From a candidate division WOR-3 bacterium (lineage in GTDB: Bacteria > Hydrothermota > Hydrothermia > LBFQ01), in the NCBI GenBank assembly GCA_027050205.1, contig JALUCS010000083.1, positions 3,036 through 67,035 of the forward strand: a stretch of DNA of 64,000 bases, given 5' to 3'. Position 1 is the stretch's first letter. The number at the start of each line of letters is the position of its first letter. A program made the position numbers and the translations under genes. Below, one piece after another: positions 1,313 through 39,218 of this stretch. The notes under the pieces were generated by a model. The model did not search any database. It saw only the letters and a list, made by a program, of their open reading frames with translations, and was not told where the DNA came from.

Positions 1313-2227
1313 ATGGAGTGTAGGGACATTTACGAAGCCGTAAACGAGGGGGACGTTGAGTGCGTTAGGCGGTTGATAGAGGAGGGGACCGACGTGAACG
1401 TAAGGGACGAGAACGGCTACACGCCACTTCACGAGGCGGCTTCCCTTGGAGAGGTGGAGATAATGAAGCTCCTGATAGAGGCGGGGGCGGATATAGACGC
1501 CCGGACGGAGAACGGGGACACCCCCCTTGACCTCGCCGCCTTCTTCTGCTCAATGTACATGGACGACTTCACACCCGTCAGGCTCCTCGTGGAGGAGTAC
1601 ATCCGCCGGGGTATGTTGGACGTGCGATTCAACGAGGACAGGGGCCTCCTCCACTTCGCCGCCGTAGGTGGGGACGTTGAACAGATAGAGAGGCTTCTGA
1701 AGATGGGAGTCAAGGAGGCTCCGGGGGACGAGAGTCCCCTCCACATAGCCGTAAAGCACGGGAACCTGACTCTGGCCCGGCAACTTATTGAGATGGGTTT
1801 GGACCCCATGAGGAGGGATAGGGAGACAGGGGACACCCTCCTGCACTACGCCGTGGACGGAGGGAACCTTGAGGCGGTGAGATTCGCCCTTGAGGAGTTG
1901 GGCTTTGACCCCAACGTACGGAACGACAGCGGCCTTACGCCTCTCCACCTCCTCGCCCTCGGCGGTTCGGTTCCCGTAGCCCGCTACCTTCTCTCCATAG
2001 GCGCCGACCCCAACGCGCGGGAGGAGAAGGGGAACACCCCCCTGCACATGGCCGCCATGTGGGGCCACCTTCAGATGGTCAGTCTCCTAATGCTCAACGG
2101 GGCTGACCCAACTATAAGGAACGACGACGGTAAGACTCCCTGCGACCTCGCTCTTACTCTGGACATCCAGCTCGCTATGGGCCTGTGCGGTCTCCTCCCG
2201 CCCGCCTCTCCCCTTGAGGCCGGATAA
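1313..2227 (+). CDS. ankyrin-repeat protein (~8 ANK repeats)
   Basis: Repeated 33-aa units with the G-TPLH-A(A)--G motif, for example [28 protein letters not shown] and [27 protein letters not shown]. It is divergent from the V-ATPase B gene across a 55-bp gap. Confidence 0.85.
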
Positions 2228-2451
2228 AGAGGTGGGTTGATGGTGACACTTTCAGTTTCCCCGTGTCGCACAGACTGACCATCCCCGATGTCGTTCAGGA
2301 TTCGTTAGCGGTGGGCAAAGTATCGCCCCACCTGCATAATGCCACTTTGGGTGTCGGTTCGGCATACGGATTGGTTGGTATTACGCCGATAGGGGAAGGA
2401 TCTATCTGTCCCTACAAAAATTGGTAGTCGCATTTCGGATCGTTGCAACCT

Positions 2452-2675
2452 TGTTGCAAGATTTTGAACGACATCGTGTTCAACGACTTTCCGAAACCGG
2501 GTTTCAGAGGGTGCGAGATGCAATTGACGAAAGGTACCAATACGGGTTCAAGATCCCAGCAGTACAAGGAACTTCGCCCCACTTTGAAAAGGACCCACTC
2601 ACCCGTTCAAAAACTGAAAATCAAACTTCAATAAACTGAAAGTTGCACTTTAGGATTCTTGACTTCCCATTAACG
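2452..2675 (+). repeat. Copy 1 of a conserved AT-rich intergenic element (boxes GTTGCAAGATTTTGAACGRCAT, GCRATTGACGRAGG, TTCAAAAACTG, AAGTYGCACTTTARGATYCTT); second copy at 55037-55180
   Basis: Direct comparison of the two intergenic regions. A 22-mer matches 21/22, an 11-mer is identical, and a roughly 34-bp distal box matches about 26/34, all in the same order and orientation. Copy 1 carries an extra ~80 bp between boxes. Confidence 0.6.
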
Positions 2676-2925
2676 AATTTTGAAGGGTATTGCATGCGGA
2701 TCACGATCTGCCGAATACCTGACGGAGTCCCCTCGGAAGTTGGCTACCACCCTATGTGGCATTGTATTCAACCTACCTTCGGAACTGGATTTCAGGAGGT
2801 AGGAGATACATTTGACGGAAATCTCCGATCCGGGGCAGGATAAGTTCCTGCAGGGAATTACTCGGAGGCTGCATCTATGCCATTAGCCGAACACCAAATT
2901 CCGACTGAAGTGCAAAAATAAAAAA

Positions 2926-2997
2926 CTGCGGGGCAGGGACTCGAACCCCGATCACCTGGTCCAGAGCCAGGCGTGTTACCGATTACACCACCCCGCA
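2926..2997 (-). tRNA. tRNA-Gln (anticodon CUG)
   Basis: The reverse complement folds as a cloverleaf: acceptor TGCGGGG/CCCCGCA with U1-A72 and G73, anticodon stem CCTGG/CCAGG with loop CUCUGGA giving anticodon CUG, and T-loop TTCGAGT. Confidence 0.85.
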
Positions 2998-3009
2998 GTG
3001 AGGTGTATA

Positions 3010-4567: not shown

Positions 4568-5317
4568 CTACGAAGCCCGGAGGGAACGCACTATACCCTC
4601 GTAGCCCTCCGCCTCCAACCTTAGGGATAGGTCGTATCCACCCGTCAGGACTATCCTACCATCTACCATAACGTGTACCTTGTCGGGCTTGACGTAGTTC
4701 AGGATCCTCTGGTAGTGGGTTATAAGGAGGACGGATAGGTTCGGGTTCTCCTCCTTCGCCCTGTTTATGGCACCCCCCACTATCCTGACGGCGTCTATGT
4801 CCAGACCGGAGTCTATCTCGTCCAGTATAGCGAGCTTTGGCTTCAGGGTTAGAAGCTGGGCGACCTCCGACCTCTTCTTCTCGCCGCCGGAGAATCCGAC
4901 GTTTACCTCCCTGTCTATGAAGTCCCCGATGCCGAGCTGCTCGTAGTAGGATCTCAAGAGTCTCCGGAACTCCACCGGTCCCATATCCCAGCCGAGGGAT
5001 TGAACGGCCTTCCACATCATCTGGGAGACCCTTACGCCCTCTATCTCGTAGGGGTACTGGAAGGCGAGGAATATGCCGAGCTTCGCTCTTTCGTCCGGCG
5101 ATAGGTCCAGGATGCTCCTCCCCTCAAAGAGGATGTCCCCGCCTACCACCTCGTACTCCGGGTGTCCCATCAGGACGAGGGCGAGGGTACTCTTGCCGGA
5201 ACCGTTGGGTCCCATTATGGCGTGCGTCTCCCCCTTGTTTATGGTCAAGCTGACGCCTTTGAGGATCAGGCTATCCTCCACCTTTACCTTCAGGTCCTTT
5301 ATCTCCAAGAGAGCCAT
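4568..5317 (-). CDS. sufC: Fe-S cluster assembly ATPase SufC
   Basis: MALLEIKDLKV..., Walker A GPNGSGKST, an ABC signature, and a Walker B/D-loop ILDEIDSGLDIDA. Length is 249 aa. Confidence 0.88.
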   Translation of the reverse strand: MALLEIKDLKVKVEDSLILKGVSLTINKGETHAIMGPNGSGKSTLALVLMGHPEYEVVGGDILFEGRSILDLSPDERAKLGIFLAFQYPYEIEGVRVSQMMWKAVQSLGWDMGPVEFRRLLRSYYEQLGIGDFIDREVNVGFSGGEKKRSEVAQLLTLKPKLAILDEIDSGLDIDAVRIVGGAINRAKEENPNLSVLLITHYQRILNYVKPDKVHVMVDGRIVLTGGYDLSLRLEAEGYEGIVRSLRAS

Positions 5318-5361
5318 AGGGGGGTATTATAGGGGTGAATCCTGACCATTTAGGTCAGAAT

Positions 5362-6768
5362 TTATCCCTTCACTACGATGATGGGCCTGCTCCGGGCGAC
5401 TATCTTGGAGAGGCCCGCGCCCTCCACCACCTTCACCACCTCCTCGGCGTCCTTGTAGGCCTCCGGTATCTCCTCAAGGATGGTGGCCTTGCTGCTCGCC
5501 CGGATCACTATACCCCTCTCCTGTAGCTTACGCTTCACCTCACTGACGCTGAACATCTTCTTGGCCTTCCGTCTGGAGAGTACCCTGCCGGCGCCGTGGC
5601 AGGTGGAACCGAAGCTCTTCTCTATGGAGCCGGGCATACCCACCAGGACGAAGGAGTACCTGCCCATATCCCCCGGTATTATGACGGGCTGACCCACATC
5701 CCTGTAGGCCTCCGGTATCTCCGGCCTGCCGGCGGGAAAGGCCCGCGTTGCCCCCTTGCGGTGGACGAGGACATCTACCATCTTACCGTCTATCTCGTAC
5801 CTCTCAAACTTGGCTATGTTGTGGGCGACGTCGTAGAGGAGGTGCATGCCCAACTCGTCGGCTGGCCTCTTGAAAACCTCCTCAAAGGCCCTCCTTACGT
5901 TGAAGGTTATCAGCTGTCTGTTGGCGAAGGCGTAGTTAGCGGCGGCGGCCATCGCCTTGAGGTAGTTTCTCCCCTCCTTGCTCGTTATAGGGGCGCAGGC
6001 CAGCTGTTTGTCGGGAACGTCTATCTTGTACTTGCTCTTCATAACCGAGAGCATTACGGAGATGTAATCGTCGGCTATCTGGTGGCCGAAACCTCTGGAA
6101 CCGCAATGTACCATAACCACCACCTGACCCCTGAAGAGGCCGAACTTCTCCGCTACCTTACGGTCGTATATCCGGTCTATCACCTGTACCTCAAGGAAGT
6201 GGTTCCCGCTTCCGAGGGTTCCGAGCTGGTCCGCACCCCTCTGCCTCGCCCTGCGGGATACCTTTGAGAAGTCCGCCCCCTCAAGCCTTCCTCCCTCCTC
6301 TATGAAGTTCAGGTCCTCCTCCCATCCGTATCCGAGCCTCACCATGTAGGCCGCCCCCTCATGAGAGACCCCCTCAAGGTCCTTCTTGCTCGCCCTGAAG
6401 GGGCCGCCAACGCCGACGCCGGAGGGGACGTAGGCGTACAGTTTGTTGGCCAGCCTATCCGCTACCTCCCTGACTTCCTCCTCAAAGAGGTTGGTCTTTA
6501 TGAGCCTTACGCCGCAGTTTATGTCAAAGCCTATCCCTCCAGGGGAGACCACCCCGTCCTCAACCCTGAATGCGGCCACCCCACCCACGGGGAAACCGTA
6601 CCCCCAGTGTATGTCCGGCATCCCTATGGAGTACTTCACTATCCCCGGAAGGGTGGCGACGTTCGCTACCTGCTCAAGGGCCTCGTCCTCCGGCATTATT
6701 GAGGGGCTGGTGAATATGAGTCCGGGAACCCTCATCCCCGGCTTGTAGTCCTTCGGAAGCTCGTACAT
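5362..6768 (-). CDS. rtcB: RNA-splicing ligase RtcB
   Basis: Motifs NHFLEVQ, HCGSRGFGHQIADDY, GDMGRYSFVLVG and STCHGAGR. The ORF track extends to 6900, but the conserved N-terminus MYELPKDYKPGMRVPG argues for the internal Met at about 6768. Confidence 0.88.
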   Translation of the reverse strand: MYELPKDYKPGMRVPGLIFTSPSIMPEDEALEQVANVATLPGIVKYSIGMPDIHWGYGFPVGGVAAFRVEDGVVSPGGIGFDINCGVRLIKTNLFEEEVREVADRLANKLYAYVPSGVGVGGPFRASKKDLEGVSHEGAAYMVRLGYGWEEDLNFIEEGGRLEGADFSKVSRRARQRGADQLGTLGSGNHFLEVQVIDRIYDRKVAEKFGLFRGQVVVMVHCGSRGFGHQIADDYISVMLSVMKSKYKIDVPDKQLACAPITSKEGRNYLKAMAAAANYAFANRQLITFNVRRAFEEVFKRPADELGMHLLYDVAHNIAKFERYEIDGKMVDVLVHRKGATRAFPAGRPEIPEAYRDVGQPVIIPGDMGRYSFVLVGMPGSIEKSFGSTCHGAGRVLSRRKAKKMFSVSEVKRKLQERGIVIRASSKATILEEIPEAYKDAEEVVKVVEGAGLSKIVARSRPIIVVKG

Positions 6769-6841: not shown

Positions 6842-7543
6842 ATGGATATCTTCCCCCTTATAATAGGCGTTGGAATGAGCAGGCTCGCTGCCCTGAACAC
6901 CTTAAAGGAGAAGCTCGGCGAAGACGGGGTAAATGCCCTGTTTGAGGTGTTTGAGGAGGAGAGAGAAAGGATAAGAGATTATCTCTTCCGCATCCTTGAG
7001 GAGAGGTTTGTCCGTAGGTTGGCGGAGGAGATAGGGAAACTCCGCTCCGAGATGTATAAGCTCTTTGCCCAGCACAGTACCGAGGTAGATGAGAAAATAG
7101 AAAACCTCCGGTCCGAGATGACGGATAAGATTGAGAATCTCCGCTCTGAAATGACGGAGAAGATTGAAAACCTCCGCTCCGAAATGACAGAGAAGATTGA
7201 GGGCCTCCGCACCGAGATGACGGAGAAGATTGAAGGCCTCCGCACCGAGATGACAGAGAAGATTGAGAATCTCCGCTCTGAAATGACGGGCCAGATTGAG
7301 GGTCTCCGCTCCGAGATGCACGACGAGATCGGAAAGCTACGTGCCGAAGTTCATCAGGAGATAGCGAAGGTGTGGGACGAGATCGGCAAGCTCCGGGCAG
7401 AAATGACGGAGAAGATAGAAAAACTTCGCTCCGAGATGCACAGCATGAAGGCCGATATTATCAAGTGGATGTTCGTGTTCTGGGTATCTCAAACGCTGGT
7501 GATAATAGGGGTTATATTTGCCCTTATGAGGTTTTTGAAATAG
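6842..7543 (+). CDS. tail-anchored coiled-coil protein with hendecad (11-aa) repeats, DUF1640-like
   Basis: About 9 tandem copies of EKIE(N/G)LR(S/T)EMT encoded by 33-bp DNA repeats. The C-terminus KWMFVFWVSQTLVIIGVIFALMRFLK is a single TM helix with a W-F-FWV-Q motif reminiscent of DUF1640. The true start may be the internal ATG near 6875 (MSRLAAL...). Confidence 0.5.
   Translation: MDIFPLIIGVGMSRLAALNTLKEKLGEDGVNALFEVFEEERERIRDYLFRILEERFVRRLAEEIGKLRSEMYKLFAQHSTEVDEKIENLRSEMTDKIENLRSEMTEKIENLRSEMTEKIEGLRTEMTEKIEGLRTEMTEKIENLRSEMTGQIEGLRSEMHDEIGKLRAEVHQEIAKVWDEIGKLRAEMTEKIEKLRSEMHSMKADIIKWMFVFWVSQTLVIIGVIFALMRFLK
7089..7440 (+). repeat. 33-bp tandem DNA repeats (about 8 clean plus 2-3 degenerate units) inside the CDS
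   Basis: Periodic gagatgacggagaagattga(a/g)aacctccgctcc units are visible directly. Two unit variants (…aaaacctccgctcc… and …gggcctccgcacc…) alternate. Confidence 0.85.
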
Positions 7544-7939
7544 GGGAAAGATTTCCTGAATACAACTTATCAACTGAAACTTACAATTTTCCTAAGGATT
7601 GATTTAAATAAATAAAAAGCTGGGTTAAAGATTTTCACACTCGCGGCACAGAATACAGGGGATTTCACCTCAACGTTCCCTTTGAAAAAGTATCACTCCA
7701 TCTAACGAGCGATAAATCCACGGGAGCCTTGTATCAGCCCATGGGGTGAGGAACCTATGTCTCGTTGCGTGGAAATATTATACAAATTGTTGTCGCTGTT
7801 TGATATGAAAAAACACAAAATTTAATCACAAATCCGTGTATAACTTTAGTTTTGATCCCAAAACCCCTATGCTGGAGTACCCGCCACCTCCGTTTCCCTT
7901 CGGCAGTATAATACACGCTCTTAAAAGGAGGGTAGAAAG

Positions 7940-11589: not shown

Positions 11590-13231
11590 ATTTCAATCCC
11601 TTATAGGTAGGCTGCAAACGACTGAGGAAGAACTTGATAAAATACTTGATATTCTCGTTTCAATCCCTTATAGGTAGGCTGCAAACAGCCGAGCGACTTT
11701 GGGGACATGCTACCACCTAGACTGTTTCAATCCCTTATAGGTAGGCTGCAAACTATATCGGCTTCAACAGAAGTCAAAACTCTTCCCCCAGTTTCAATCC
11801 CTTATAGGTAGGCTGCAAACAAGACGTATCCCTTGACAGAGGAAACGAAATAGTTGGGTTTCAATCCCTTATAGGTAGGCTGCAAACTACGAAGTCGTCT
11901 CCGCCCTCGGACTCCCCTTCCATAGTTTCAATCCCTTATAGGTAGGCTGCAAACAAAGGGTGGCGTCCTGACCGTTAGACGACGGGGGCATAGTTTCAAT
12001 CCCTTATAGGTAGGCTGCAAACTATGTAAGAAAAGAGAGGAAGTTTTAGAGCTGATACGGTTTCAATCCCTTATAGGTAGGCTGCAAACCTGAGCCATAT
12101 GAGGGGGAGGTCTATGATAACGTTCTGTTTCAATCCCTTATAGGTAGGCTGCAAACACAGACCCGGAGAAACCTCGTCCCCCAGCGTGGGGGGTTTCAAT
12201 CCCTTATAGGTAGGCTGCAAACCCTTACGCCCTCGGTGCCACGGAGGTGGCACGTATTAGTTTCAATCCCTTATAGGTAGGCTGCAAACCGTCCTCTCCG
12301 CCCTCGTTCGCCGCCTCGCTCTATCCGTTTCAATCCCTTATAGGTAGGCTGCAAACTCTCAAAACCTCCCTCGCCGAGTTCATCCCTGAATCTAGTTTCA
12401 ATCCCTTATAGGTAGGCTGCAAACTGACCAGTATAGAAAAGGCACTCCGGGACCTCCCCGAGTTTCAATCCCTTATAGGTAGGCTGCAAACTCAAAATGG
12501 GACACATATGTTTCTATATCAACCTTTTGTTTCAATCCCTTATAGGTAGGCTGCAAACTCTTTACCCTGTCCCCTACCCGCCCCGCCCCCCGGTTTAGTT
12601 TCAATCCCTTATAGGTAGGCTGCAAACGACCGTTTTTTTACGTCGGATACCGGAAACGGGTTGGTTTCAATCCCTTATAGGTAGGCTGCAAACCTGACGC
12701 TTTCGTCGTTCAGGCGATAGCACGAAATTAGTTTCAATCCCTTATAGGTAGGCTGCAAACCCGACTATCCTCTCTTTAGGGAGATTGAAGAATTTTGGTT
12801 TCAATCCCTTATAGGTAGGCTGCAAACCTACCTCATCCTTTCCCCCGACGAATTCTATCTTATCGGTTTCAATCCCTTATAGGTAGGCTGCAAACCAGCA
12901 ATCTGCCCGACTTTACGTCGGGACGAATATATGTTTCAATCCCTTATAGGTAGGCTGCAAACTTTGATTTCCTTTTCGTGTCCAAATACAATATTAGCTG
13001 TTTCAATCCCTTATAGGTAGGCTGCAAACTCATAGGAGCCGCTATCTGGTCAGCGTGGAGAGGGTAGTTTCAATCCCTTATAGGTAGGCTGCAAACAACA
13101 ATAGTTATCATCTAATATCCCTACTTTCGGATTGGTTTCAATCCCTTATAGGTAGGCTGCAAACTCCCCTCCGTTCTCCTCTCCCTCATTCGGGAGAGGG
13201 CGTTTCAATCCCTTATAGGTAGGCTGCAAAC
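11590..13231 (-). CRISPR. CRISPR array with 25 copies of a 30-bp repeat and 24 spacers of about 36-38 bp; crRNA is read on the minus strand
   Basis: The + strand repeat is GTTTCAATCCCTTATAGGTAGGCTGCAAAC. Its reverse complement ends ...ATTGAAAC, matching the 8-nt 5' handle of type I-B repeats. The repeat at 11590 is degenerate (A for G), as expected for the leader-distal end. Confidence 0.97.
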
Positions 13232-13480
13232 CCGTCTCCCATCCCTCTCCACAGGCTCAATTCTCATGCGAGTCTACCGGGTATTATAAGGGCGGGAAAA
13301 TAAAGATGGAGGCTCGTAAACCTCCAATCCTGCAGAAACCCCGGGAGGTTTGCGAAGTGGATGTAGATGCCCATCAGTATTGAGGAAACGGCCTTTTAAT
13401 ACGTTTGAACGATTGTTCAAGGACCCCGTGTAAGTTGAAATTTTCCGGAGGTTTGCGAAGTTGCTTTGTGGTACAAAGTA
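13232..13480 (-). promoter_or_regulatory. Putative CRISPR leader, between the last repeat and the direct-repeat-flanked insertion
   Basis: It adjoins the non-degenerate end of the array on the cas2 side. The minus strand carries TATAAT (reverse complement of gggtattataaggg at about 13298). An internal duplicated motif CCGGGAGGTTTGCGAAGT occurs at about 13333 and 13446. Confidence 0.5.
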
Positions 13481-14200
13481 GTCTTCGGTGAGGTTCAACA
13501 CTCACAGCCACATAGTGTCCCACCGTCGGGGCTTCTGTGGTCGCAGGCTAAACGGTTCAGGTGTAGAATAGAGCCTATGTTGATAGTTCAGAGGTGGGAA
13601 GTTGAAAGTGGAGTGCTTAGTCCCTCTTCAAAGACCCGGCCTTTACTCTATCAGGGGAAGGCACTGTACAGAGCCTTTCTAAGTCTGGCCCGGTCCTTTT
13701 TAAGAGAGCCGAGCGGCTGGTGGTTGAGGAGGAACGTAAGCTCGTTAATAGCGTTGAAGACGGCTTACTCTTATTTACTCTCCGCCCTTGAGGAAGCAGA
13801 TGCTACACCCACGCCGAAGACCGAGGCGGACGACCCCCTGATTACTAAGGTCATCAAGCTGGATACTGCCGTAAAGAGGAAAGGTCTGTTGGAGTTCGCC
13901 CTCAAAGCCGGGCTTGAGGAAGAGTTCTGGAAGGAGCTGGAGGAGACTACTGCGATCGTCAGTTTCCTTCTGAACGTACTTCTGGCCATAAAGGGGGGGA
14001 GGGTAAAAACCTCACAGAAGATCTACAAACGGGTCAGAAGGTTGTTGAGAAGGTATCTCAACCGTCTGGAGGATTTATGGCTGGATGTGGATATGTTGAG
14101 GTATATGGTGGGCGATAGGGATACGCAACTCGTTGATATTGATGAGGTGGAAGGGGAGATAGAGAAGATTTTGGAGGAGCATGGATCTAAAAGCCACTAA
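13466..14200 (+). CDS. hypothetical protein, candidate partner or antitoxin of the downstream RelE/ParE-like toxin; true start probably internal
   Basis: The ORF overlaps the RelE-like gene by 20 nt, the usual antitoxin-toxin arrangement. The C-terminal ~150 aa look protein-like (acidic, helical, ...LEDLWLDVDMLRYMVGDRDTQLVDIDEVEGEIEKILEEHG) with no motif I recognise. The N-terminal ~40 aa overlap the direct repeat and look non-coding. Confidence 0.4.
   Translation: MWYKVVFGEVQHSQPHSVPPSGLLWSQAKRFRCRIEPMLIVQRWEVESGVLSPSSKTRPLLYQGKALYRAFLSLARSFLREPSGWWLRRNVSSLIALKTAYSYLLSALEEADATPTPKTEADDPLITKVIKLDTAVKRKGLLEFALKAGLEEEFWKELEETTAIVSFLLNVLLAIKGGRVKTSQKIYKRVRRLLRRYLNRLEDLWLDVDMLRYMVGDRDTQLVDIDEVEGEIEKILEEHGSKSH
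13489..13522 (+). repeat. 34-bp direct repeat, left copy (GAGGTTCAACACTCACAGCCACATAGTGTCCCAC)
   Basis: Matches the copy at 14493-14526 at 32 of 34 positions. The two copies bracket the RelE-like module. Confidence 0.85.
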
Positions 14201-14468
14201 GAAGTTTCATAAATCCCTACGGAAATTACCTCCAGACGTCTTAAGGAGGCTCCAGAGAACCATCAACCTGATCAAGATCTCAAGGGATGTTGATGACCTC
14301 TCCCGAAGGGTGGGACCGGGGAACATCAAACCTCTGAGGGCTAAGGGTGGCAAGTTCTACAGTATCCGGCTTGGACTCCACTGGCAACTTGGGATTGAGG
14401 TCAGGGGAAACGTAGTCGTTCTGATGAAGATAGGAAGCAGGGAGAACTTCTATAGGGACTTCCCTTGA
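14181..14468 (+). CDS. RelE/ParE-family type II toxin (mRNA interferase)
   Basis: A 95-aa product with an N-terminal KKFHKSLRKLPPDVLRRLQRTI helix and a C-terminal YSIRLGLHWQLGIEVRGNVVVLMKIGSRENFY. The C-terminus follows the pattern Y-R-[LI]R-GDYR-IY-...V-VL-IGHR--Y. Confidence 0.65.
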   Translation: MDLKATKKFHKSLRKLPPDVLRRLQRTINLIKISRDVDDLSRRVGPGNIKPLRAKGGKFYSIRLGLHWQLGIEVRGNVVVLMKIGSRENFYRDFP

Positions 14469-14492
14469 ATAGGACCCCAACGGCAAAGTTGT

Positions 14493-14526
14493 CTGCAACG
14501 AGGTTCCACACCCACAGCCACATAGT
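14493..14526 (+). repeat. 34-bp direct repeat, right copy (GAGGTTCCACACCCACAGCCACATAGTGTCCCAC)
   Basis: See the left copy. It ends 8 bp before the cas2 stop codon. Confidence 0.85.
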
Positions 14527-14533
14527 GTCCCAC

Positions 14534-14800
14534 TCAAAAGATGAAGTCCTCGCTGCTCGGAGCCTCACGCCCGAGGTTTTCGCGGGCGTAGTACGACTTA
14601 CTCCTGAACTTGTATATCACGACGGAGTCCATACTGTCGTCTATGATACCGTTGATCTCGGCCTTCAGGAGGCGAAATTCTGCCTTTGTTATCTCCCCTT
14701 CAAAGACCGAATTCTGTACCCACGTGAGGTACTTCTTGCACACCTTATGCACCTTCTGGACCCGCTCCGTAGCGACGTCATAAACGAGAATGATGAACAT
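14534..14800 (-). CDS. cas2: CRISPR-associated endoribonuclease Cas2
   Basis: An 88-aa product, MFIILVYDVATERVQKVHKVCKKYLTWVQNSVFEGEI... (canonical Cas2 N-terminus). Confidence 0.9.
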   Translation of the reverse strand: MFIILVYDVATERVQKVHKVCKKYLTWVQNSVFEGEITKAEFRLLKAEINGIIDDSMDSVVIYKFRSKSYYARENLGREAPSSEDFIF

Positions 14801-14805
14801 ACCTT

Positions 14806-15807
14806 TCAGTCCTTTATCACGTAAGGCGAATACGGTTTTTCACCCAGAAAGTGCTTGTACAGCTTGTAGCACTCAATCCGGATCAGGCGGCGGTAGGAGA
14901 CCTTACCGATGTTGGGGTACTTTATGGTGTCCTGTAGTTTTTTCTCGTACTCCTGAACGAAGATCCTCATACCCTCCTCCGTCAGATAGCTCATGTTGGC
15001 CTCACTGCTGAAGTGTTTCTCCGTTATCTGGTGGCGATTTACGAGGCGGAAGATCACCCTATCCACGATTATGGGTTTGAAGACCTCGGCGATATCAAGG
15101 TTGAGGGAGAAGCTCCGGCGGTTGGTCTCGTGGAGGTACCCTATTCTTGGGTCAAGGTGCGTCCGGTATATCTGGGAGAGTACGGTCGTGTATATGAGGG
15201 AGTTTCCGAAGGAGATCAGGGCGTTTATGGGGTTTCTGGGTGGGCGACGTGTCCGTTTATCAAAGGCGAAGGTGTCGCTCCCGAGGATATCGTTCCAAGA
15301 GGCGTAGTACTTCTCCCTGACGTTCCCCTCGTAGGCCATCAACTCCGGGATACTGCTAATGCCGTTTATATCCTCAAGACCAGATACGAACTCCTCCGAC
15401 CTCTCCTTGAGGTCGTACCTCTTCAGGTTTTTGGCCATGTTCAGTACGGCACCCATTACGAAGCCCCGGGCGAGGGCCATTCTCCTTTCCTCATCAAGGT
15501 AATGCTCCGCCTGAAGGAGGGTTATAAGGCCGCTGTTGTAGTACTCGCGGGGGTAGTAGGAACCCGCATAGTAGCCGTAGTAGTTGTAGAAGTGGAGGGG
15601 GATACGGTTCTGGCTGAGGAATACCAGGAGTTTGCTGTTCAGGGACATCTCACCGAATACGTGGATCTCGGAGACCGCCTTTACGGGGATGCTCCGCTTA
15701 CCACCCTCCCACTCAAACATCAGGGTGTTGTCCTTACGCCTCAGGCTGCCGCTCTGGAATATGTATATCGCCCTCTTCATGACCAGCACATCTCCCTGTA
15801 GGCGCAC
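14806..15807 (-). CDS. cas1: CRISPR-associated integrase Cas1
   Basis: A ~330-aa product adjacent to cas2 and cas4. The true start is probably the internal MKRAIYIF at about 15780. Confidence 0.85.
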   Translation of the reverse strand: MRLQGDVLVMKRAIYIFQSGSLRRKDNTLMFEWEGGKRSIPVKAVSEIHVFGEMSLNSKLLVFLSQNRIPLHFYNYYGYYAGSYYPREYYNSGLITLLQAEHYLDEERRMALARGFVMGAVLNMAKNLKRYDLKERSEEFVSGLEDINGISSIPELMAYEGNVREKYYASWNDILGSDTFAFDKRTRRPPRNPINALISFGNSLIYTTVLSQIYRTHLDPRIGYLHETNRRSFSLNLDIAEVFKPIIVDRVIFRLVNRHQITEKHFSSEANMSYLTEEGMRIFVQEYEKKLQDTIKYPNIGKVSYRRLIRIECYKLYKHFLGEKPYSPYVIKD

Positions 15808-16268
15808 CTGCGGCAGTACCGTACCTTGACGGGCGGTGGTGGAGAGGGCAGGTTTATGAGGTTTTCTATGGCCTTTATCACGCTGGAGATTTCCCTTTCG
15901 CTCTCCGCATCCAATACCACCTCAACCCTCCTCCTCTCCTCCGGGAAGGACAGGACCCCCTTCGCCTCAACGCCCTTCTCGTGCTTCAGGTAGTAAAGGT
16001 AAAAGAGCAGTTGCATCTTCGCCGCCTTAAGGAACTTTGAGGACTTCTTCACCTCCACTATGACGTTTCCCCTCATGAGGTCTATCTTTATGCGGTTGTC
16101 AAGGTTTATCTCCTTGTTCTCTTCGTACCTGCGGAAGAAGAGGGAGGTTATGGAGCGCCCTTCCGCCATCAGGGGGTTCTCATGCTCCGGCTCTATGCCG
16201 TGTCCCATCAACCATACCTGACGTTTGCATATGTGGTAGTACCAGACGAGAGTTCCGTTCGCTACCAT
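15777..16268 (-). CDS. cas4: Cas4 (RecB-like nuclease with Fe-S cysteines)
   Basis: N-terminal Cys (YHICKRQVW) and a C-terminal CRRCAYREMC cluster. Length is 163 aa. Confidence 0.85.
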   Translation of the reverse strand: MVANGTLVWYYHICKRQVWLMGHGIEPEHENPLMAEGRSITSLFFRRYEENKEINLDNRIKIDLMRGNVIVEVKKSSKFLKAAKMQLLFYLYYLKHEKGVEAKGVLSFPEERRRVEVVLDAESEREISSVIKAIENLINLPSPPPPVKVRYCRRCAYREMCWS

Positions 16269-18661
16269 ATCTCAAATCCCCTTTCATCCCGTATGAAGCC
16301 GGTCGTGGGGTCGTAGAACCTTCCGAGGGCGTTCTCATCAACCACGGGCAACCCGACACCTCTATCGGTAAGGCTGCCTTCCAGGTCAACCGACGTACTG
16401 ACCACAAACTGGTAAAACTTCGGCTTTATCCTGTTGAACCTCTCACGGGCCTTCCAGATGTCGCTGGTGCGTTTCATCTCCTCAAGGATGCTCTTAAACT
16501 CCTTCCACACTTCCCTGGCTTCGTCCGTAATCTTTATGAACACGTCTCTCTTGTAAGGCTGTTCCTCAATAAGACAGAACTGACTGATATAAACCTCGTT
16601 AGCATCTGTGGGTTTTAAAACACATCTCTTATTCCTCTCCCCATCAAAGCGAAGACCACACACCGCCTTCCATAACTCATCACTCACCGCATCCGTTATA
16701 CCCTTTTCCCATACGCTCCTGAAGTACTCACCGATCAGGGAGGAGAATTCCGGCTCCGTCAAACGGGATGAACTCTTCAGGAGGGCCATAGTGCGCTCAA
16801 GGAGGACAGAATCGTAGATCCGGTGAGCGAAGTTTTTACCTTTATCATCTACAAGGTAAACGACATGGAACTTCCCACGTTTCCCGGAACTCAGATTGCG
16901 GTTGCACCTGCCGGCAGTCTGGATCAGGGAGTCCATGGGGGCGAGGTCGCGATATACCACGTCAAAATCCACATCAACCCCGGCCTCTATGATCTGTGTT
17001 GATACGGCAAATCTGTAATTTCCACTCTTTATCGCCCTTATGCGGTTCAGTCGCTCGTAAGGGGGTATCTCCGTTGATAGAAAGGCTACTGGCTCTCCGA
17101 CCTTACCGCTGAGCAGGCTATAAAGCTCCTGTGCCGACGCTATCGTGTTGGCGACGAACAGGTAGGATAGGCCATCTCTGGGGTTGAAGTCGTTGATGAA
17201 GTCTCGCAGGGTCCGTGGGTTGAGATCTATATGCACGTCCATCCTGTCAAGTTCCCTGAAGTACCTTTCGGGTTCGGGCACGAGCTCCTTTGCGTCCTTC
17301 AGGAGGTAGGGTTGTGTGGCCGTCATGAGAATAACGTACAGCTTCAGACGTTCTGAGGCTTCTTTCAGGATGTTGCGAATGAGGGGCCAGTACACCGAAG
17401 GCAGAGCCTGAACCTCGTCCATGAGCAGAATAGAGCCGTAAAGACGGTTGAAGCGACGGGCAGAGGGGTTCCGCCACGATAGAAGGGTATCAAAGAGCTG
17501 TACGAAGGTCGTTATGATCACCTCGGAGTGCCAGCCTTCCGTCAGGAGCCGGGAAACTCCGTAGTCAAACTCGTCGCTCTCCACCCTGTAGCCCAGATCC
17601 GACAGGTGATGGTGCTTTATGATCGCGCGGCTGTCGGGCGACCTCAGACTCTCCCTGAGGACATCCTCCAGAACCCGTGCGTTCTGGTCAATGATAGAGA
17701 GGAAAGGAAGAGCGTATATTATGCGGGGTCTGTAGGCTTTACGTTTGAAGACGACCTCTCTTAACTTCATGGCCACCGCCATGCCCGTGAGGGTTTTCCC
17801 CATACCCGTAGGAAGGGTAAGGGTGTAAAGGTGTTCATCCGGCGATAGATCCTGCCTCATAACCTCCTGGAACGCCCTCTCCCTCAGCCCATCCATTTTC
17901 CCGTTGTCAGATTTGAAGGCTCTGGCCCTGTACCTCTGTACGGTGTTGGAGGGTATATCCACCCTCTCCGGAACGTATCCGCCCGCCCCGGCCTCAAGTT
18001 TATCCGCATTCAGCAGGGAGGAGAATCCGGTTAGTAAGGTGAAGAACGCCCCAATATCTTCCCCTTCACATTTACGTTTTTTCCTCCACCATCTCCTCCA
18101 TCTTCCGAAAATTTTCTTCAGGTCATTCCCCAGCCATACTTCAAACTCCTGCCGGTTAAAGACGAGGACTTCCCTTCGGGGGAAATGAAGGTCAAGTGAG
18201 CCAAGAAAGGCGTTCGCTCTGTCTTCGTTTATACTCTCCACCTGCTTCCGCAGGTTTTCAAGTTCCCTATCGCCGGGAGGGTAAATCTCATCGTACACGT
18301 CCCGCAAGTTCGTATGGTGCCGCTTTACGATCAGATGAAGGAGGAGAATGTGAAGCCGATAGTTCTCTTCACTAATACCCCGTACTTCAAGCCATCTTAA
18401 GGCACGGTTGAGGAAGAAGAGGGAGGAGAGGTAGGCGTGGCGGGATAGGGGGTCCTTCTTCCTCCGGCCTGACAGGACGTCCTGAAAGAAGGCCGTAGTT
18501 TTGCCGAAGTCATGAAGGGCCGCTGCCATCTCAAGGAGAACCCTTTCAGATTCGCCTTGCCAGTACGGTATATCCCTTACCTCTCCCCTGAGAAGGTGCA
18601 GGACCCGGTTCGTATGCTCCTCTAAGAGGACTCCCGGATGTGAGTAGATGCCGGAGGCCAT
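16262..18661 (-). CDS. cas3: Cas3 HD nuclease-helicase fusion
   Basis: N-terminal HD (AAALHDFGKT ... KRHH) followed by Walker A LPTGMGKTL and a DEVQ (DEAH-box) motif LLMDEVQALP. Length is 799 aa. Confidence 0.9.
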   Translation of the reverse strand: MASGIYSHPGVLLEEHTNRVLHLLRGEVRDIPYWQGESERVLLEMAAALHDFGKTTAFFQDVLSGRRKKDPLSRHAYLSSLFFLNRALRWLEVRGISEENYRLHILLLHLIVKRHHTNLRDVYDEIYPPGDRELENLRKQVESINEDRANAFLGSLDLHFPRREVLVFNRQEFEVWLGNDLKKIFGRWRRWWRKKRKCEGEDIGAFFTLLTGFSSLLNADKLEAGAGGYVPERVDIPSNTVQRYRARAFKSDNGKMDGLRERAFQEVMRQDLSPDEHLYTLTLPTGMGKTLTGMAVAMKLREVVFKRKAYRPRIIYALPFLSIIDQNARVLEDVLRESLRSPDSRAIIKHHHLSDLGYRVESDEFDYGVSRLLTEGWHSEVIITTFVQLFDTLLSWRNPSARRFNRLYGSILLMDEVQALPSVYWPLIRNILKEASERLKLYVILMTATQPYLLKDAKELVPEPERYFRELDRMDVHIDLNPRTLRDFINDFNPRDGLSYLFVANTIASAQELYSLLSGKVGEPVAFLSTEIPPYERLNRIRAIKSGNYRFAVSTQIIEAGVDVDFDVVYRDLAPMDSLIQTAGRCNRNLSSGKRGKFHVVYLVDDKGKNFAHRIYDSVLLERTMALLKSSSRLTEPEFSSLIGEYFRSVWEKGITDAVSDELWKAVCGLRFDGERNKRCVLKPTDANEVYISQFCLIEEQPYKRDVFIKITDEAREVWKEFKSILEEMKRTSDIWKARERFNRIKPKFYQFVVSTSVDLEGSLTDRGVGLPVVDENALGRFYDPTTGFIRDERGFEIW

Positions 18662-19368
18662 AGGTATATAACGCTTCCGTCCCTCAGTCTGTAAAGCCCG
18701 TCCTTGGCCCCAACCTTAACCGGACGTCCGTTGGCCTCTACGATCACGTCCTGATACAGACGTGGGACCCGGTTCGTGTCTATATAAATGGGTACACGTT
18801 CTTTCAGCAGTTTTATACCGTCTTCAATGGCCTCTCCGAAGTCCGAGACTATATCTACCGGGAAAACGCTTGATATCCGATAAACCCCCGATGGAAGGGC
18901 CTCCAGCTCCTCCACTCCAACGTAGGAGAAGTCCGCGAGGAGCTCGGACAATCCCAGGCAAAGGGTGTAGTGGGTGCGATGTTCCTGTAGAAGGGAGGCG
19001 ACCTCTACGAGCATCTTTTCGTCTCCGCTCAGGAAAATCCTAAAGCGGGGGTTTTTGAGGTACTCAATCTTTATCTGGGTCCGTGGCTCTTTCTTTCTGT
19101 GTAGCGTAGGATCAAACCCGCTTGAGCCTTTAGTATTTATCAGGTTCTGTCCCCAACGGATCCGTTTTACGGGGTTAAGGACCCGGATACCGACGTACAA
19201 CCCGGAAGTTTTCTCTATGTACTCTTCTTTCCCCATACCGAGGATCGCCCCAACCATACCCCTGACGGCCGTAGGAGGTGGGAAGGAGTAGGTCAGAGGG
19301 GAGGAAGTGGTGTAGAACCTCCTGAAGTGCGCGTAATCGCCCCAGATGTCAAAGAGGACGGCTCTCAT
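18622..19368 (-). CDS. cas5: Cas5 (type I-B, Cas5h)
   Basis: MRAVLFDIWGDYAHFRRFYTTSSPLTYSFPPPTAVRGMVGAILGM (Cas5 N-terminal signature). Confidence 0.85.
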   Translation of the reverse strand: MRAVLFDIWGDYAHFRRFYTTSSPLTYSFPPPTAVRGMVGAILGMGKEEYIEKTSGLYVGIRVLNPVKRIRWGQNLINTKGSSGFDPTLHRKKEPRTQIKIEYLKNPRFRIFLSGDEKMLVEVASLLQEHRTHYTLCLGLSELLADFSYVGVEELEALPSGVYRISSVFPVDIVSDFGEAIEDGIKLLKERVPIYIDTNRVPRLYQDVIVEANGRPVKVGAKDGLYRLRDGSVIYLWPPASTHIRESS

Positions 19369-20312
19369 ACCTCACTGTCCCACGGGAAAGGTTCCAGATC
19401 CACCCCGGCGAAGACCTCCTCTATGCCCGGCCTCAGGCGTACCCTGTCTCCTATCCTGTAGCGCACCTTCTGGATCCGGTTCCTGTACTTCTCCACCTTT
19501 ACCTTCAGCTTTTCCAGATTCAGGACCCCATCTTCTATATCGCGTATGGCCTCGTCCTCCCTGTCGGAATCAAAGGAGACCAGCTTGTCAAGCTCACCCA
19601 TGTGGGTAAGGGTTTCGGGTTTGTAGATTATGTCAAGGAGCAGGCGGGGTTCGTGGCCGAGCTTGGACCGGGTAATGAGATCCGTTGATGCCTTGTGGCC
19701 CACCCACAGGGCCTTAAGCATGTTGTCAACGTCCTCATCGGTTAAACCGGTCGTCTCCGCCGCCTTCTCGTTGGCTACACCGTAGAAAACTATCAGGGAA
19801 TAGGGTACAACGTAGGTCTCCGCGAAGGTTCCCGCGAAGGTCTCCTGTTTTTTGTCCGTTTTAGGGGGCATCACGCTGGTGTTCTTCATAAGGACGACCT
19901 TCACCTTATGAAGGGAGTGGCCGAACTTGAACTGGACGGGACCGGTGAGAGAGAAAGCGAGACTTTCTTTCTTTTTACCCTTCTTACCCTCTTTTAGAGC
20001 GAAAGTTCCACCGAACAGCCGTATGTCTATGCATCTTTTCAGCACCTCTGCAGGGTCCTTGCCGTATTCGGCGAAGACGTCCTCCTTCGTCTTCAGGCTG
20101 CCATTCTCTTTGCGCTCCTCCCTCAGAAATATCTCAAACCCCATCTCCTGAAGCGTATCCCTTACGGTGCGCTTGAGCCTCACGTCGCTGACGATGTTTA
20201 TCCCCGTCTCCTCGTCTATCCTCGGCCTGTTCTCGTCCATGGGGTCCCCGTTCGGGTTGGCCCATGACACGTCATACAGGAACAGTATCTCATGCCTGTT
20301 CTTCAAGATCAT
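19365..20312 (-). CDS. cas7: Cas7 (Csh2, type I-B backbone subunit)
   Basis: LFLYDVSWANPNGDPMDENRPR, the NPNGDP-type motif of Cas7/Csh2/DevR. Confidence 0.85.
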   Translation of the reverse strand: MILKNRHEILFLYDVSWANPNGDPMDENRPRIDEETGINIVSDVRLKRTVRDTLQEMGFEIFLREERKENGSLKTKEDVFAEYGKDPAEVLKRCIDIRLFGGTFALKEGKKGKKKESLAFSLTGPVQFKFGHSLHKVKVVLMKNTSVMPPKTDKKQETFAGTFAETYVVPYSLIVFYGVANEKAAETTGLTDEDVDNMLKALWVGHKASTDLITRSKLGHEPRLLLDIIYKPETLTHMGELDKLVSFDSDREDEAIRDIEDGVLNLEKLKVKVEKYRNRIQKVRYRIGDRVRLRPGIEEVFAGVDLEPFPWDSEV

Positions 20313-22023
20313 CTTCTACCTCCTCTTTTCCGTAAATAAGCTCTGCAACGTGGTTATACATCCCCATCCCCAGGGCGAAGTAAAAGTTCAACTCGTCCAC
20401 GTTCATGCCCCAGGGCGATGGAGCCTGTGAGAGGTACTCCGACGCCTTTGCGTACAGGATACTCTCCCCTTTCCTGAAGTGGTCGTACTCCTCAAGCTTG
20501 TTCCTTATCCTCGGAAGCAGGCCCTTCAGGTCCCTTTCGTCCATCTTGAGGCTCTTCAGGACCTTGTAGAAGGGTGTGCTTCCCCTCACCCTTCTTTGAA
20601 CCCTTATGAGCTTCTCCGTCAGCGCCCCCATCAGGAAGAGGCCCTTCTTAAGGGGTGTATCCAGGGCTGGAAGAGTATCAAGGAACTCCTCCAGCGAGGC
20701 GTACGCGCTATCTCTTACGTCCATAACGCCCTCCTTTTTTGTCGTTAAAAGCACAAAAACAAACGTAGCAAAGGCATCAAGTATGGTTAATCTGGGAGTC
20801 TGAGACTCAACGATCCCCTCCCTTATCTTTCCCATAAGTCTGGATATGAGCCACCCCCTGTCTATAGGCCTTCCGGTGAACGTCCTGTATATGACCTCGT
20901 AAAAATAGTCTGCCGAATTCTTAGTGGCAAAGAATTTCCACATAGTTCCATAAGTGAACTCTGATTCTAAACTTAAAAGAGATTCAACCACAGATTTTGC
21001 TTTGAACAGGGACTTTAGACGAGAGGGATAGACGTCCTGCAGGTAAAGGTTTATTCTTTCCTGCGAACTTGAACCCTTCTTTTCCATAAACAGAAAGTGA
21101 AAGCTCATGACGTCTCTCTCCTCGCTCAGGATTTCAAGGATTTCCTCTTCGTCTGCGGTTATACGTCTTATGCTCTCACCCTTTAAGGAGGCACTCTTCT
21201 TCCCCTCCGTTAGTATAGCAAGCACCTCACCGCGCACGCTCTCGTGGCCGAGTACGAAGTCCGGAATGATGGAATATTTTATTTCATATTTCATTTCGCC
21301 GGCGAATGCAAAAGTTAAGTTGCGTTCAACGTGCTGGCGGCCGTGCCTTATAAGTTCGCGACAATCATGACACAGAGGAAAGGATTTGTAAGCATACTTT
21401 TTGTTGAACCCTATGACGTATCCGGGTTTGTCTATGGTGTAGAACTTGAAGGGTGATATGTCTCCATTAACTTTTTTTCTCTCGCCGCATATAGAGCATA
21501 TCCCTTCAATCCATTTACTTCCGTTTTTTTTATTTCTGGCGCTCCGCAGTTTTTTCTCAAGGACTTTTTGAAAAACATCAATTTCACCCATAAATTTACC
21601 ATTTATACGAACTGTGATTATAATTTTATCACCTTTTGCGTTTTTTAAATAATTACGAATATCTGTTAATATTCTTTTATTGCTAATATCTAGATACGGT
21701 ATATCTTCTGATACAGATCTTAGAGCATTATATATTGCTTTAAGATTCCCAGTGCTTCTATGAGGTTCATTTTTATTTAGATAAATTGTTAAAGTATGAG
21801 AGGGTGTGCGAGATGCCCATTTCCTGTAAAAGTATAGTGGCACTTTACTCCTCTGGAACTGCTCCTGTGTAAGTCCTATGTAGTTCCCATCCCCATCAAA
21901 CTCTAAAACGAACACCTTATCTGCCTCCATGGGGTCGTAAAGAGTGGGTCTTCCTATTAACTTACCCAGTTCTCTTAAAGATTTCAGCATGGCAGAGAGG
22001 ATTATACAGCCGAAAATAGGCAT
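20290..22023 (-). CDS. cas8b: Cas8b (Csh1) large subunit
   Basis: A 577-aa first gene of the cas operon with a Cys-rich zinc-finger-like block (CSICGERKKV ... CHDCRELIRHG). Position and size fit the type I-B large subunit. Confidence 0.7.
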   Translation of the reverse strand: MPIFGCIILSAMLKSLRELGKLIGRPTLYDPMEADKVFVLEFDGDGNYIGLTQEQFQRSKVPLYFYRKWASRTPSHTLTIYLNKNEPHRSTGNLKAIYNALRSVSEDIPYLDISNKRILTDIRNYLKNAKGDKIIITVRINGKFMGEIDVFQKVLEKKLRSARNKKNGSKWIEGICSICGERKKVNGDISPFKFYTIDKPGYVIGFNKKYAYKSFPLCHDCRELIRHGRQHVERNLTFAFAGEMKYEIKYSIIPDFVLGHESVRGEVLAILTEGKKSASLKGESIRRITADEEEILEILSEERDVMSFHFLFMEKKGSSSQERINLYLQDVYPSRLKSLFKAKSVVESLLSLESEFTYGTMWKFFATKNSADYFYEVIYRTFTGRPIDRGWLISRLMGKIREGIVESQTPRLTILDAFATFVFVLLTTKKEGVMDVRDSAYASLEEFLDTLPALDTPLKKGLFLMGALTEKLIRVQRRVRGSTPFYKVLKSLKMDERDLKGLLPRIRNKLEEYDHFRKGESILYAKASEYLSQAPSPWGMNVDELNFYFALGMGMYNHVAELIYGKEEVEDDLEEQA

Positions 22024-38698: not shown

Positions 38699-39218
38699 GA
38701 GTGCCGTATTATACGGGATGAATGTGTGTATGCTAACCTTCCTCCCGTGTTATAGGGGAACTGTGCCTTCGCGTGAAAATCTGCGATTTGGAACGTATGG
38801 GTTTTACAATTTATGTGCGATAACTATTGGGTATGTTTTACTAATGGGAGGATAGCCTACTACCCAACCTTACGGGAATCTTTAAAGGACATAAGTCCAT
38901 CCTTCCAGAAGGGAGTAATTGAAGGATTACATCGTACGATCCGACGGCGGTATTAACGCCGATGGAATGACGCCCCATCCATCAGTTTTGGAAGCCGGAA
39001 GTTGCATTTCAATCCGTTGATCCTTAGAGTACCGGGTAATTTCTGTAGTTCTATCTATAACCGATAATTGTGAAACATATTCTTGCAAATGGCTTCTGAA
39101 AAGCTCACTTCAAGGTAGAGGCGATATCCAACAATTTTCTATTTCTGTATATACGGAATAAGTGCTTTATTAGCACGTTTCGTTCTTTCATCCTTTAACC
39201 TCCGTAGAATGTTCAACG

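Follow-up and report, generated by a model that had tools for sequence, protein, structure and literature searches.

A modular intergenic repeat with an array of 22-bp dyad-symmetric units in an uncultured bacterial lineage: a candidate decaying, lineage-specific dispersed DNA element

Two similar intergenic regions and their neighbors

The window, i.e., the whole 64-kb stretch of DNA analyzed here, is bacterial and has a G+C content of ~57%, and the best relatives of the M32 carboxypeptidase that it encodes are found in hot-spring MAGs labelled Thermotogae/Thermotogota. A type I-B CRISPR-Cas system is also encoded in the window, with the array at 11590-13231 and the cas genes at 14806-22023. 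Two AT-rich intergenic regions share the sequence described below. Copy 1 is located within the 697 nt that separate an ankyrin-repeat gene (1313-2227, + strand) from a tRNA-Gln gene (2925-2998, - strand), and copy 2 in a 385-nt gap between a UbiA-family gene ending at 55000 (+ strand) and an HTH ORF of 134 aa (55386-55790, - strand), so that both copies lie between convergent genes. These neighbors agree with the original prediction, which had placed copy 1 next to tRNA-Gln and copy 2 next to a degraded IS630-like transposase, the latter being the truncated IS630-type HTH ORF. Neither the CRISPR leader (13232-13470) nor the CRISPR repeat gave a significant blastn match to copy 1 or 2, and identity of the copies with the leader or with a degenerate type I-B array was rejected for lack of this similarity. 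Likewise, no duplicated tRNA-Gln 3' end of att type was found in the window, and this candidate was dropped.

The HTH ORF, a neighbor that lies outside the repeat, represents the truncated N-terminal part of an IS630-family transposase (Pfam HTH_32, HTH_23, HTH_29, and HTH_33). In an exhaustive HMMER search, its closest longer relative was P0141 (69% identity), which continues into a DDE_3 domain. P0141 is encoded on the 1232-nt contig L088, and the metagenome run that yielded L088 also yielded L063, a contig identical to the window. The right end of L088 matches, in inverted orientation, the sequence just upstream of the HTH ORF in the window, and the left terminal repeat of the IS (TCTCACAAGGATGCATTAC, 55831-55813, - strand) was thereby identified. 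A right terminal repeat is present nowhere in the window, in which the IS terminal-repeat motif occurs once. Searching by tblastn with four longer transposases, we matched the HTH part only and detected no DDE remnant in copy 1, in copy 2 or in the longer sister-strain region introduced below; a decayed DDE domain of the adjacent transposase was therefore rejected as the source of the element. Similarly, the 22-bp units of the element do not resemble the IS terminal repeats (p = 0.36 to 0.85), and this result, together with the lack of a right repeat in the window, led us to reject a derivation of the element ends or units from IS630 terminal repeats. The IS copy reads simply as a bystander, truncated where the element-bearing DNA begins.

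The original prediction had described a collinear set of boxes (here A to D) in the two regions, and this description was borne out: the boxes lie on the + strand in both copies, in the same order, at 2453-2660 (copy 1) and 55036-55169 (copy 2), which is far above chance, and they are absent elsewhere in the 64-kb window. Allowing ≤3 mismatches for boxes A and D and ≤1 for boxes B and C, we found that box A (GTTGCAAGATTTTGAACGRCAT) matches the window solely at 2453-2474 and 55036-55057 (21/22 identical; 0 matches expected at ≤3 mismatches) and box D solely at 2640-2660 and 55149-55169 (18/21 identical). Box C (TTCAAAAACTG) occurs exactly at 2606 and 55110, and box B starts at 2520 and 55092 in copies 1 and 2, respectively. 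When 17 intergenic regions were compared all-versus-all by blastn, copies 1 and 2 formed the sole significant pair, with 71% identity over 73 nt in the C-D stretch (E ~1e-5) and a separate match at box A (E ~1e-3), and a gapped local alignment of the two copies scored 136, versus 90.6 ± 8.8 in shuffles. Chance similarity is ruled out by these box searches, E-values and the shuffle-tested alignment. Boxes A and B are spaced by 67 and 56 nt in copies 1 and 2, respectively, and boxes B and C by 86 and 18 nt; copy 1 is thus ~80 nt longer between A and C, in line with the insert of ~80 bp that had been assigned to it. The boxes are 86-100% identical between the two copies, and the spacers are not alignable.

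Less can be made of the short motifs that had also been reported to recur outside the boxes. They do exist, at 2630 and 32594, at 2673 and 31567, and at 32632 and 50820 (i.e., slightly displaced from the positions first given), and their number is near chance: the intergenic regions, with copy 2 left out, share three 12-mers, versus 0.73 ± 0.98 in shuffles (maximum, 4). We therefore did not accept these motifs as part of the repeat.

Anatomy of the element and a third, partial site

Boxes C and D, rather than being independent, form the two ends of one head-to-tail array of a 22-bp unit. The unit consensus (GAAAAYTGNAAGTYNCAYTTTA) is imperfectly dyad-symmetric, with the half-sites AAAAYTG and CAYTTTA (AAAAYTG-N7-CAYTTTA), and an array comprises 2-3 units at an exact spacing of 22 bp, i.e., ~two helical turns. 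The number of units is 2 in copy 1, 3 in copy 2 of the sister strains, and 2 plus a remnant in copy 2 of the window. As a whole, the element is AT-rich and ~180-280 bp in size, and in copy 1 its 5'-to-3' order is left anchor, direct unit, box A, spacer with box B, and array.

More specifically, copy 1 (all features on the + strand) opens with the left anchor TAGGGGAAGGATC at 2390-2402, of which an exact second occurrence is found at 7541-7553, and with unit u0 (AAAAATTGGTAGTCGCATTTCG, 2416-2437), which lies upstream of box A, departs from the consensus at 2 positions and scores 20.8 against a position weight matrix (PWM) in whose training it was not included. Box A itself (GTTGCAAGATTTTGAACGACAT, 2453-2474) can form a short hairpin and looks like an inverted partial unit, in that it resembles, by eye, the reverse complement of the 5' part of the unit, or box C region (GTTGCAAGATTTTGAAC versus CTTGCAGTTTTTGAAG). 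Box B (GCAATTGACGAAAG, 2520-2533) is followed by unit u1 (AAAAACTGAAAATCAAACTTCA, 2609-2630), which was recognized by PWM and consensus, has box C as its 5' part and starts exactly 22 bp before unit u2; the latter (ATAAACTGAAAGTTGCACTTTA, 2631-2652), recovered by box search, PWM and consensus, makes up most of box D (2640-2660).

Copy 2, also on the + strand, starts with the left anchor TAGGGAAAGGGGTC at 54998-55011, in which TAG serves as the stop codon of the UbiA-family gene; the sister strains have TAGGGGAAGGGATC at this position, the equivalent of the anchor of copy 1. Box A (GTTGCAAGATTTTGAACGGCAT, 55036-55057) and box B (GCGATTGACGGAGG, 55092-55105) precede unit u1 (AAAAACTGCAAGCCGGACTTTA, 55113-55134), which scores 26.5 by PWM, fits the consensus and overlaps box C (55110-55120). 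The last unit, identified by PWM (TAAAATCGTAAGTCGCACTTTA, 55140-55161), overlaps box D (55149-55169), and the shortened middle unit would lie just upstream of it. A distal block at 55213-55269 is 91% identical to the sister strain and is weakly matched in copy 1. In the sister strains, copy 2 carries three head-to-tail 22-bp units (AAAAACTGTAAGTCGGACTTTG, GAAAATTGAAAGTCTCATTTTA, and GAAAATCGCAAGTTGCACTTTA), and TRF detected this periodicity in the sister-strain contig L090 (period 22, 2.6 copies, score 65), where 0/1000 shuffles reached a score of 50. The middle unit of copy 2 in the window is 17 nt shorter than in the sister strains, and the phasing of the array is thus broken. A DnaA-box-like sequence (TTAATCCACA) follows box D in the window copy 2 and is not conserved in the sister strains.

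Scanning the window with the unit consensus at ≤3 mismatches yielded 8 matches versus 0.12 expected. Among the matches that had not been used to define the consensus, three are located in or close to intergenic DNA (2417, 7571 and, as a weaker match, 48858) and one, at 17009, lies within a cas gene. The PWM, which was built from five units, gave scores of 20.8 at 2416 and 22.8 at 7570 for sites left out of its training, and outside copies 1 and 2 a score of 22 was reached in 0/200 composition-preserving block shuffles. It also pointed to a weaker unit-like site in the divergent promoter region at 38699-39218.

The site at 7570 belongs to a third, partial copy (7541-7591), which consists of an anchor and one unit. 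Its anchor (TAGGGGAAAGATT, 7541-7553) matches that of copy 1 exactly and lies 16 nt upstream of the unit (GAAAATTGTAAGTTTCAGTTGA, 7570-7591; PWM 22.8), which scores best on the - strand. The TAG of this anchor is the stop codon of the gene at 6842-7543, just as the TAG of the copy 2 anchor is a stop codon. The third site lies between co-directional genes, and the genes downstream of it, on the + strand, are rplM and rpsI. The remaining intergenic sequence of this site (7541-7830) gave no significant alignment to copy 1 or 2 (z = 0.4 to 1.1), nor did the other AT-rich intergenic regions of the window show significant wider homology to them. The documented set in the 64-kb window is thus two full copies and one partial copy. 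Exact-word scans for box A (zero mismatches) in public genome, metagenome and viral collections returned chance matches without the other boxes, and the corresponding zero-mismatch scan for box D in viral contigs returned nothing. Moreover, blastn searches against plasmid and phage collections produced no match, and an nhmmer profile search of the window and ~90 fetched loci recovered no extra copy.

RNA, coding and mobility signals, and divergence between strains

At the gathering score, Rfam models matched only tRNAs and CRISPR repeats in the window, and permissive searches returned nothing relevant at E ≤ 10 in the region 2200-3000 or at E ≤ 5 in the copy 2 loci L061-L063. Folding energies were those of shuffled sequences (MFE z-scores of -0.8 to +0.5) in copy 1, copy 2 and the longer sister-strain region, whichever strand was folded, and no promoter or terminator shared between the copies was found. 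Pairing of box A with box C is possible in copy 1 and is not predicted in copy 2. For covariation analysis, two paralogues and their close orthologues are too few independent copies. A known RNA family or a structured RNA was rejected on the grounds of the Rfam and folding results, and the suggestion in the original prediction that these might be small RNA genes gained no support from them, from the promoter and terminator comparison, or from a sister strain in which box A is half-deleted.

The same prediction had held that the repeat is not protein-coding, and in this respect our data concur. Reading frames differ between the copies, none being common to both because the A-B spacing differs by 11 nt, and the ORFs that run over the element are broken by stop codons in copy 1 and in copy 2 of the sister strains. 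Six-frame translations gave no Pfam match, and a search of 5.8 billion proteins turned up no relatives of a spurious 145-aa ORF over copy 2. A coding sequence or pseudogene was rejected for these reasons.

With respect to mobility, the left and right ends of the element are not significantly inverted repeats of each other (p = 0.12, 0.33, and 0.36 versus shuffles), so that terminal inverted repeats of the element itself were rejected, and no clear target-site duplication was seen by eye. The element is small, non-coding and present in several dispersed copies, as a MITE would be. Accordingly, the part of the original prediction that spoke of MITE-like IS derivatives survives as far as the behavior of a small dispersed repeat is concerned, and fails for derivation from IS630, given that neither a DDE remnant, nor similarity to the IS ends, nor terminal inverted repeats of its own were found.

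Orthologous loci were fetched via the cluster members of the flanking proteins. Copy 2 is present in the sister-strain contigs L061, L062, L089, and L090, in which the flanking genes are 93-97% identical to those of the window and the non-coding gap at copy 2 measures ~800 nt; L061 and L089 end inside the array, and L062 stops at its edge. In relatives at 91-93% identity, the place of the HTH gene and the element is taken by a HinfI-type restriction-modification pair. At copy 1, the contig of a relative at 95% identity ends 9 nt past the tRNA 3' end, and in relatives at 74-76% identity the tRNA-Gln gene is followed directly by the next gene. Synteny beyond tRNA-Gln is not conserved in the closest relatives with the M32 peptidase gene, and the search for orthologous intergenic regions through these relatives was abandoned for this reason. 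The relatives differ at these loci by larger rearrangements, and their differing gene content indicates that both copies are located at junctions that carry different DNA in related strains and relatives.

Comparison of the window with the sister strain gave 82% identity and several indels for copy 2, and 86% identity for its units. For comparison, third-codon identities in the flanking genes are 0.855 (UbiA family), 0.909 (M32 peptidase), and 0.933 (HTH ORF); the HTH ORF is 99% identical between the strains, its substitutions numbering 4, 0, and 9 at codon positions 1, 2, and 3, respectively. Box A of copy 2 is 18/22 identical in L089 and has lost 9 nt, half of the box, in L090. At the four positions where box A of L089 differs, copy 1 agrees with the window, and the changes in L089 thus appear derived; conversely, copy 1 and the sister strains agree at two positions of box D, so that the two changes in the window appear to be the derived ones. 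A 36-nt block over boxes B and C (55086-55121) is identical in the window, L089 and L090. This block could reflect residual constraint, and a rough estimate of its occurrence by chance at 85% identity is ~13%. Taken together, the neutral-like divergence and the indels suggest that, since the strains split, the element has been drifting at about the neutral (synonymous) rate.

Interpretation and relation to known systems

In our judgment, there is about an even chance that the copies are a decaying, lineage-specific, modular dispersed DNA repeat that carries an iteron-like or operator-like array of putative binding sites and is not an RNA gene. A dimeric, sequence-specific DNA-binding protein would occupy the phased array of units cooperatively, in an arrangement such as that of plasmid iterons with an inverted half-iteron operator or of the binding-site arrays of mobile elements. 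Some dispersing process would have spread the copies, candidates being a non-autonomous BOX- or MITE-like element and fragments of an integrated replicon, and the boxes would have been kept alike for as long as the source was active. In their current locations, the copies would serve no host function and would decay at an approximately neutral rate. The combination of near-identical boxes and unalignable spacers fits source elements that shared only their functional sites, and does not fit an old local duplication that decays evenly. We could not link any Rep, transposase or regulator gene to the units as the source of a candidate binding protein.

If the 22-bp units served a chromosomal transcription factor or nucleoid protein as operators, the arrays might instead be a working host regulatory module that controls or insulates the neighboring genes. 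Dyad symmetry and helical phase of the units speak for such a role, as do the solo high-scoring unit upstream of rplM-rpsI, where single units could act as host operators, the weaker unit-like site in the divergent promoter region (38699-39218), and the B-C block shared by three strains. The full copies, however, are located between convergent gene ends, where a promoter is not needed, the strains have diverged at about the synonymous rate even within the units, the phasing is broken by the shortened middle unit and box A by the deletion in L090, and the loci are absent from the relatives at 74-76% and 91-93% identity. We consider this reading unlikely. The shared regulatory module of the original prediction thus holds in form, i.e., as repeated dyad-symmetric sites, and not in function, given the convergent-gene position and the neutral-rate decay. 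It is similarly improbable that the copies are origin or copy-control remnants of an integrated plasmid or virus, in which case the units would be iterons and a lost rep gene would have had box A as its inverted half-iteron operator. The arrangement of iterons and inverted repeats is well established for theta plasmids (see also PMC5397158). Three direct 22-bp repeats at 22-bp spacing, accompanied in AT-rich DNA by a box A that resembles an inverted partial repeat, would correspond to it, and L090 does carry the at least three direct repeats of ~17-22 bp in helical phase that are expected of an iteron origin. Copy 1 also abuts the 3' end of tRNA-Gln. The 3' end of a tRNA gene is a classic integration site. 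Furthermore, copy 2 lies in a strain-variable junction beside a truncated IS and, in the window, has the DnaA-box-like sequence after box D. Against an integrated replicon, no rep, plasmid or viral gene adjoins either copy, the combination of an adjacent rep gene with a conserved DnaA box or unwinding element that is expected of an iteron origin was not found at copies 1 and 2, plasmid and phage collections and viral contigs hold no match, the DnaA-like box is not conserved in the sister strains, and the tRNA 3' end is not duplicated in the window. Three separate chromosomal sites are also more easily explained by a dispersed repeat.

That the element is a MITE or another derivative of the neighboring IS630-family IS, mobilized by its transposase, is largely refuted and in our view very unlikely. 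Copy 2 does lie directly downstream of the truncated transposase gene, a related IS contig of 1.2 kb (L088) exists in the same metagenome, and transposase-binding repeats occur in multiple copies within the ends of some Tc1/mariner-type elements. Yet the units are unlike the IS terminal repeats (p = 0.36 to 0.85), the terminal-repeat motif occurs once in the window, no frame of copies 1 and 2 or of the sister region retains a DDE remnant, the element ends are not significantly inverted repeats, and no IS is found near copy 1 or the third site. It is even less probable that the copies belong to a family of small RNA genes or cis-acting RNAs. Patchy conservation, with boxes separated by variable spacers, the hairpin of box A and the A-C pairing possible in copy 1 would be compatible with RNA, but Rfam gave no family at permissive thresholds, folding energies matched those of shuffles, and no promoter or terminator is common to the copies. 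In addition, copy 2 is not predicted to form the A-C pairing, any stems would be AT-rich, in an organism that has a GC-rich genome and is known only from hot-spring metagenomes, and half of box A and 17 nt of the array have been lost to indels among the sister strains.

There is also a slim chance that the 22-bp units are working sites of a dedicated protein, in which case the arrays would constitute a previously undescribed DNA-level system in an uncultured thermophile lineage. In one version, a domesticated transposase DNA-binding domain could act on the phased site array, a version to which the between-strain conservation of the adjacent truncated HTH ORF (99% identity) would be relevant; in the other, the array could serve an integrated replicon as its iteron-type origin or partition site. 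Under either version, the apparent decay would represent turnover of redundant sites.

Should the reading as a decaying dispersed repeat be correct, the element would add a new lineage-specific family to those already known among small modular repeats of intergenic DNA (BOX, REP/BIME, and MITE-like). Its practical value would be modest: such repeats may break metagenome assemblies, as in the sister contigs that end in or at the array, mark junctions of genome rearrangement, and can pass for small RNA genes or regulatory sites. The 22-bp dyad unit provides a concrete motif for counting copies in complete genomes and for seeking a cognate binding protein. Greater weight would attach to the element if the units proved to be active sites, e.g., of a conserved transposase-derived HTH protein or a replicon initiator.

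We do not claim membership in the BOX, MITE, REP or IS630-derived families, and mobility is something that we infer. Compared with MITEs of the IS630/Tc1-mariner type, the element is likewise small, AT-rich and non-coding, and an IS630-family fragment adjoins one copy; unlike them, it is without terminal inverted repeats, a recognized TA duplication or similarity to the local IS630-like ends. With enterobacterial REP/BIME sequences it shares short imperfect palindromes and linker boxes in collinear mosaics, as well as a position directly behind stop codons and, in many cases, between convergent gene ends. REPs, in contrast, are GC-rich hairpins that alternate in orientation and are linked to RAYT transposases, whereas the units described here are AT-rich, mostly direct and of a fixed 22-bp period. 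The iteron regions of plasmids such as pPS10, RK2, F, and R6K resemble the element in their direct repeats of ~22 bp at two helical turns, in AT richness, and in having an inverted partial repeat nearby, which in plasmids is used for Rep autoregulation and which box A resembles. The element differs from them in that it lacks a rep gene, a conserved DnaA box, and plasmid or viral neighbors, occupies several chromosomal sites, and is built of dyad-symmetric units, which classical iterons usually are not.

Judged by architecture, the nearest analogue of the repeat is the pneumococcal BOX element; we neither expect nor claim that the two are related in sequence. These composite elements have boxA and boxC on either side of tandem boxB modules, the number of which varies; their length differs from strain to strain, they are enriched between convergent genes, and they have been interpreted as parasitic, non-autonomous elements (PMC3049150). 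BOX has terminal inverted repeats, target-site duplications and a predicted tight RNA fold, none of which was seen here, and the module of our element is a dyad-symmetric unit of 22 bp, as opposed to a boxB of ~45 nt, in 2-3 documented copies, as opposed to >100. As in the BOX element of S. pneumoniae, nevertheless, a small non-coding dispersed repeat has conserved end modules that flank a tandem array of a short module, and the number of modules differs between copies and between strains; of the three sites known in the 64 kb, two lie between convergent genes and one between co-directional genes.

Truncated transposase ORF and the IS630-family contig

Beside copy 2 of the intergenic repeat (55036-55169, +) lies a truncated IS630-type HTH ORF (55386-55790, - strand), and its protein is 99% identical between strains when compared with that encoded at 124-528 of L061, a sister-strain contig carrying copy 2. 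The two ORFs differ by 13 nucleotide changes, which are distributed over codon positions 1:2:3 as 4:0:9, and the DNA downstream of the HTH ORF, in contrast to the ORF itself, has drifted freely. This sequence comparison suggests that the transposase fragment is under purifying selection, and its domestication is therefore possible. In the same metagenome run (SRR10312501) that yielded L063, a contig identical to the window, we found a 1,232-nt contig (L088) representing a near-complete IS630-family element, in which the HTH part has an in-frame stop and the DDE_3 ORF is intact. Comparison with L088 allowed the IS terminal repeat adjoining copy 2 to be identified.

Strain-variable junction and contig ends

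In the 91-93% relatives (L064-L069, about 4737-6766), a HinfI-type restriction-modification pair follows the SdpI/DUF1648-like gene and replaces the HTH ORF and repeat found at 55001-55871 of the window. The junction after this gene is a strain-variable hot spot. Two sister-strain contigs, L061 and L089, terminate within the 22-bp array and overlap each other by about 55 nt; the end of a third, L062, coincides with the edge of the array, and the contig of the 95% relative (L070) ends 9 nt beyond the 3' end of tRNA-Gln. These contig ends may point to assembly breaks at the intergenic repeat or at strain-variable junctions.

Other intergenic sites

Several GC-rich hairpins occur at 2690-2924, between copy 1 (2453-2660) and tRNA-Gln. 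The + strand of this stretch folded better than its shuffles (z -2.4; 4 of 200 shuffles were equally good), had no match in Rfam and has no counterpart in copy 2. The gap of 520 nt between two divergent genes (38699-39218) contains, at 38983-39012, a weak match to the 22-bp unit, GGAAGCCGGAAGTTGCATTTCA, which scored 15.8 with the position weight matrix built from five units and adjoins CAGTTTTGGAA, an inverted sequence resembling box C, the 5' part of the array. This site may be a further decayed repeat copy, or may have arisen by chance.

Other genes and the CRISPR-Cas locus

A long + strand ORF at 155-1300 was rejected as spurious; the true gene here (within 1-1300) encodes a V/A-type ATPase B subunit on the - strand and runs off the window start. 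The gene at 6842-7543 (+) contains about nine tandem 33-nt (11-residue) repeats (repeat-scan families D3 and D4) and encodes a coiled-coil, apolipoprotein-like membrane protein. Two tandem paralogues (31497-32474 and 32689-33510) share 68-82% DNA identity at a spacing of 1018 nt. Their products have lipoprotein-like N-termini, and two of the short motifs noted in the original prediction lie in the AT-rich regions upstream of the two genes.

A CRISPR array of 25 repeats (GTTTCAATCCCTTATAGGTAGGCTGCAAAC on the + strand; 11590-13231) is accompanied by a type I-B cas operon (Cas1, Cas4, Cas3, Cas5, Cas7 and Cas8b/TM1802; within 13232-22023), with a ParE/HigB-like ORF (14181-14468) beside the CRISPR leader. 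A 74% relative (L057, 204-1034) shows 82% conservation of the CRISPR repeat together with about 460 nt on the leader side.
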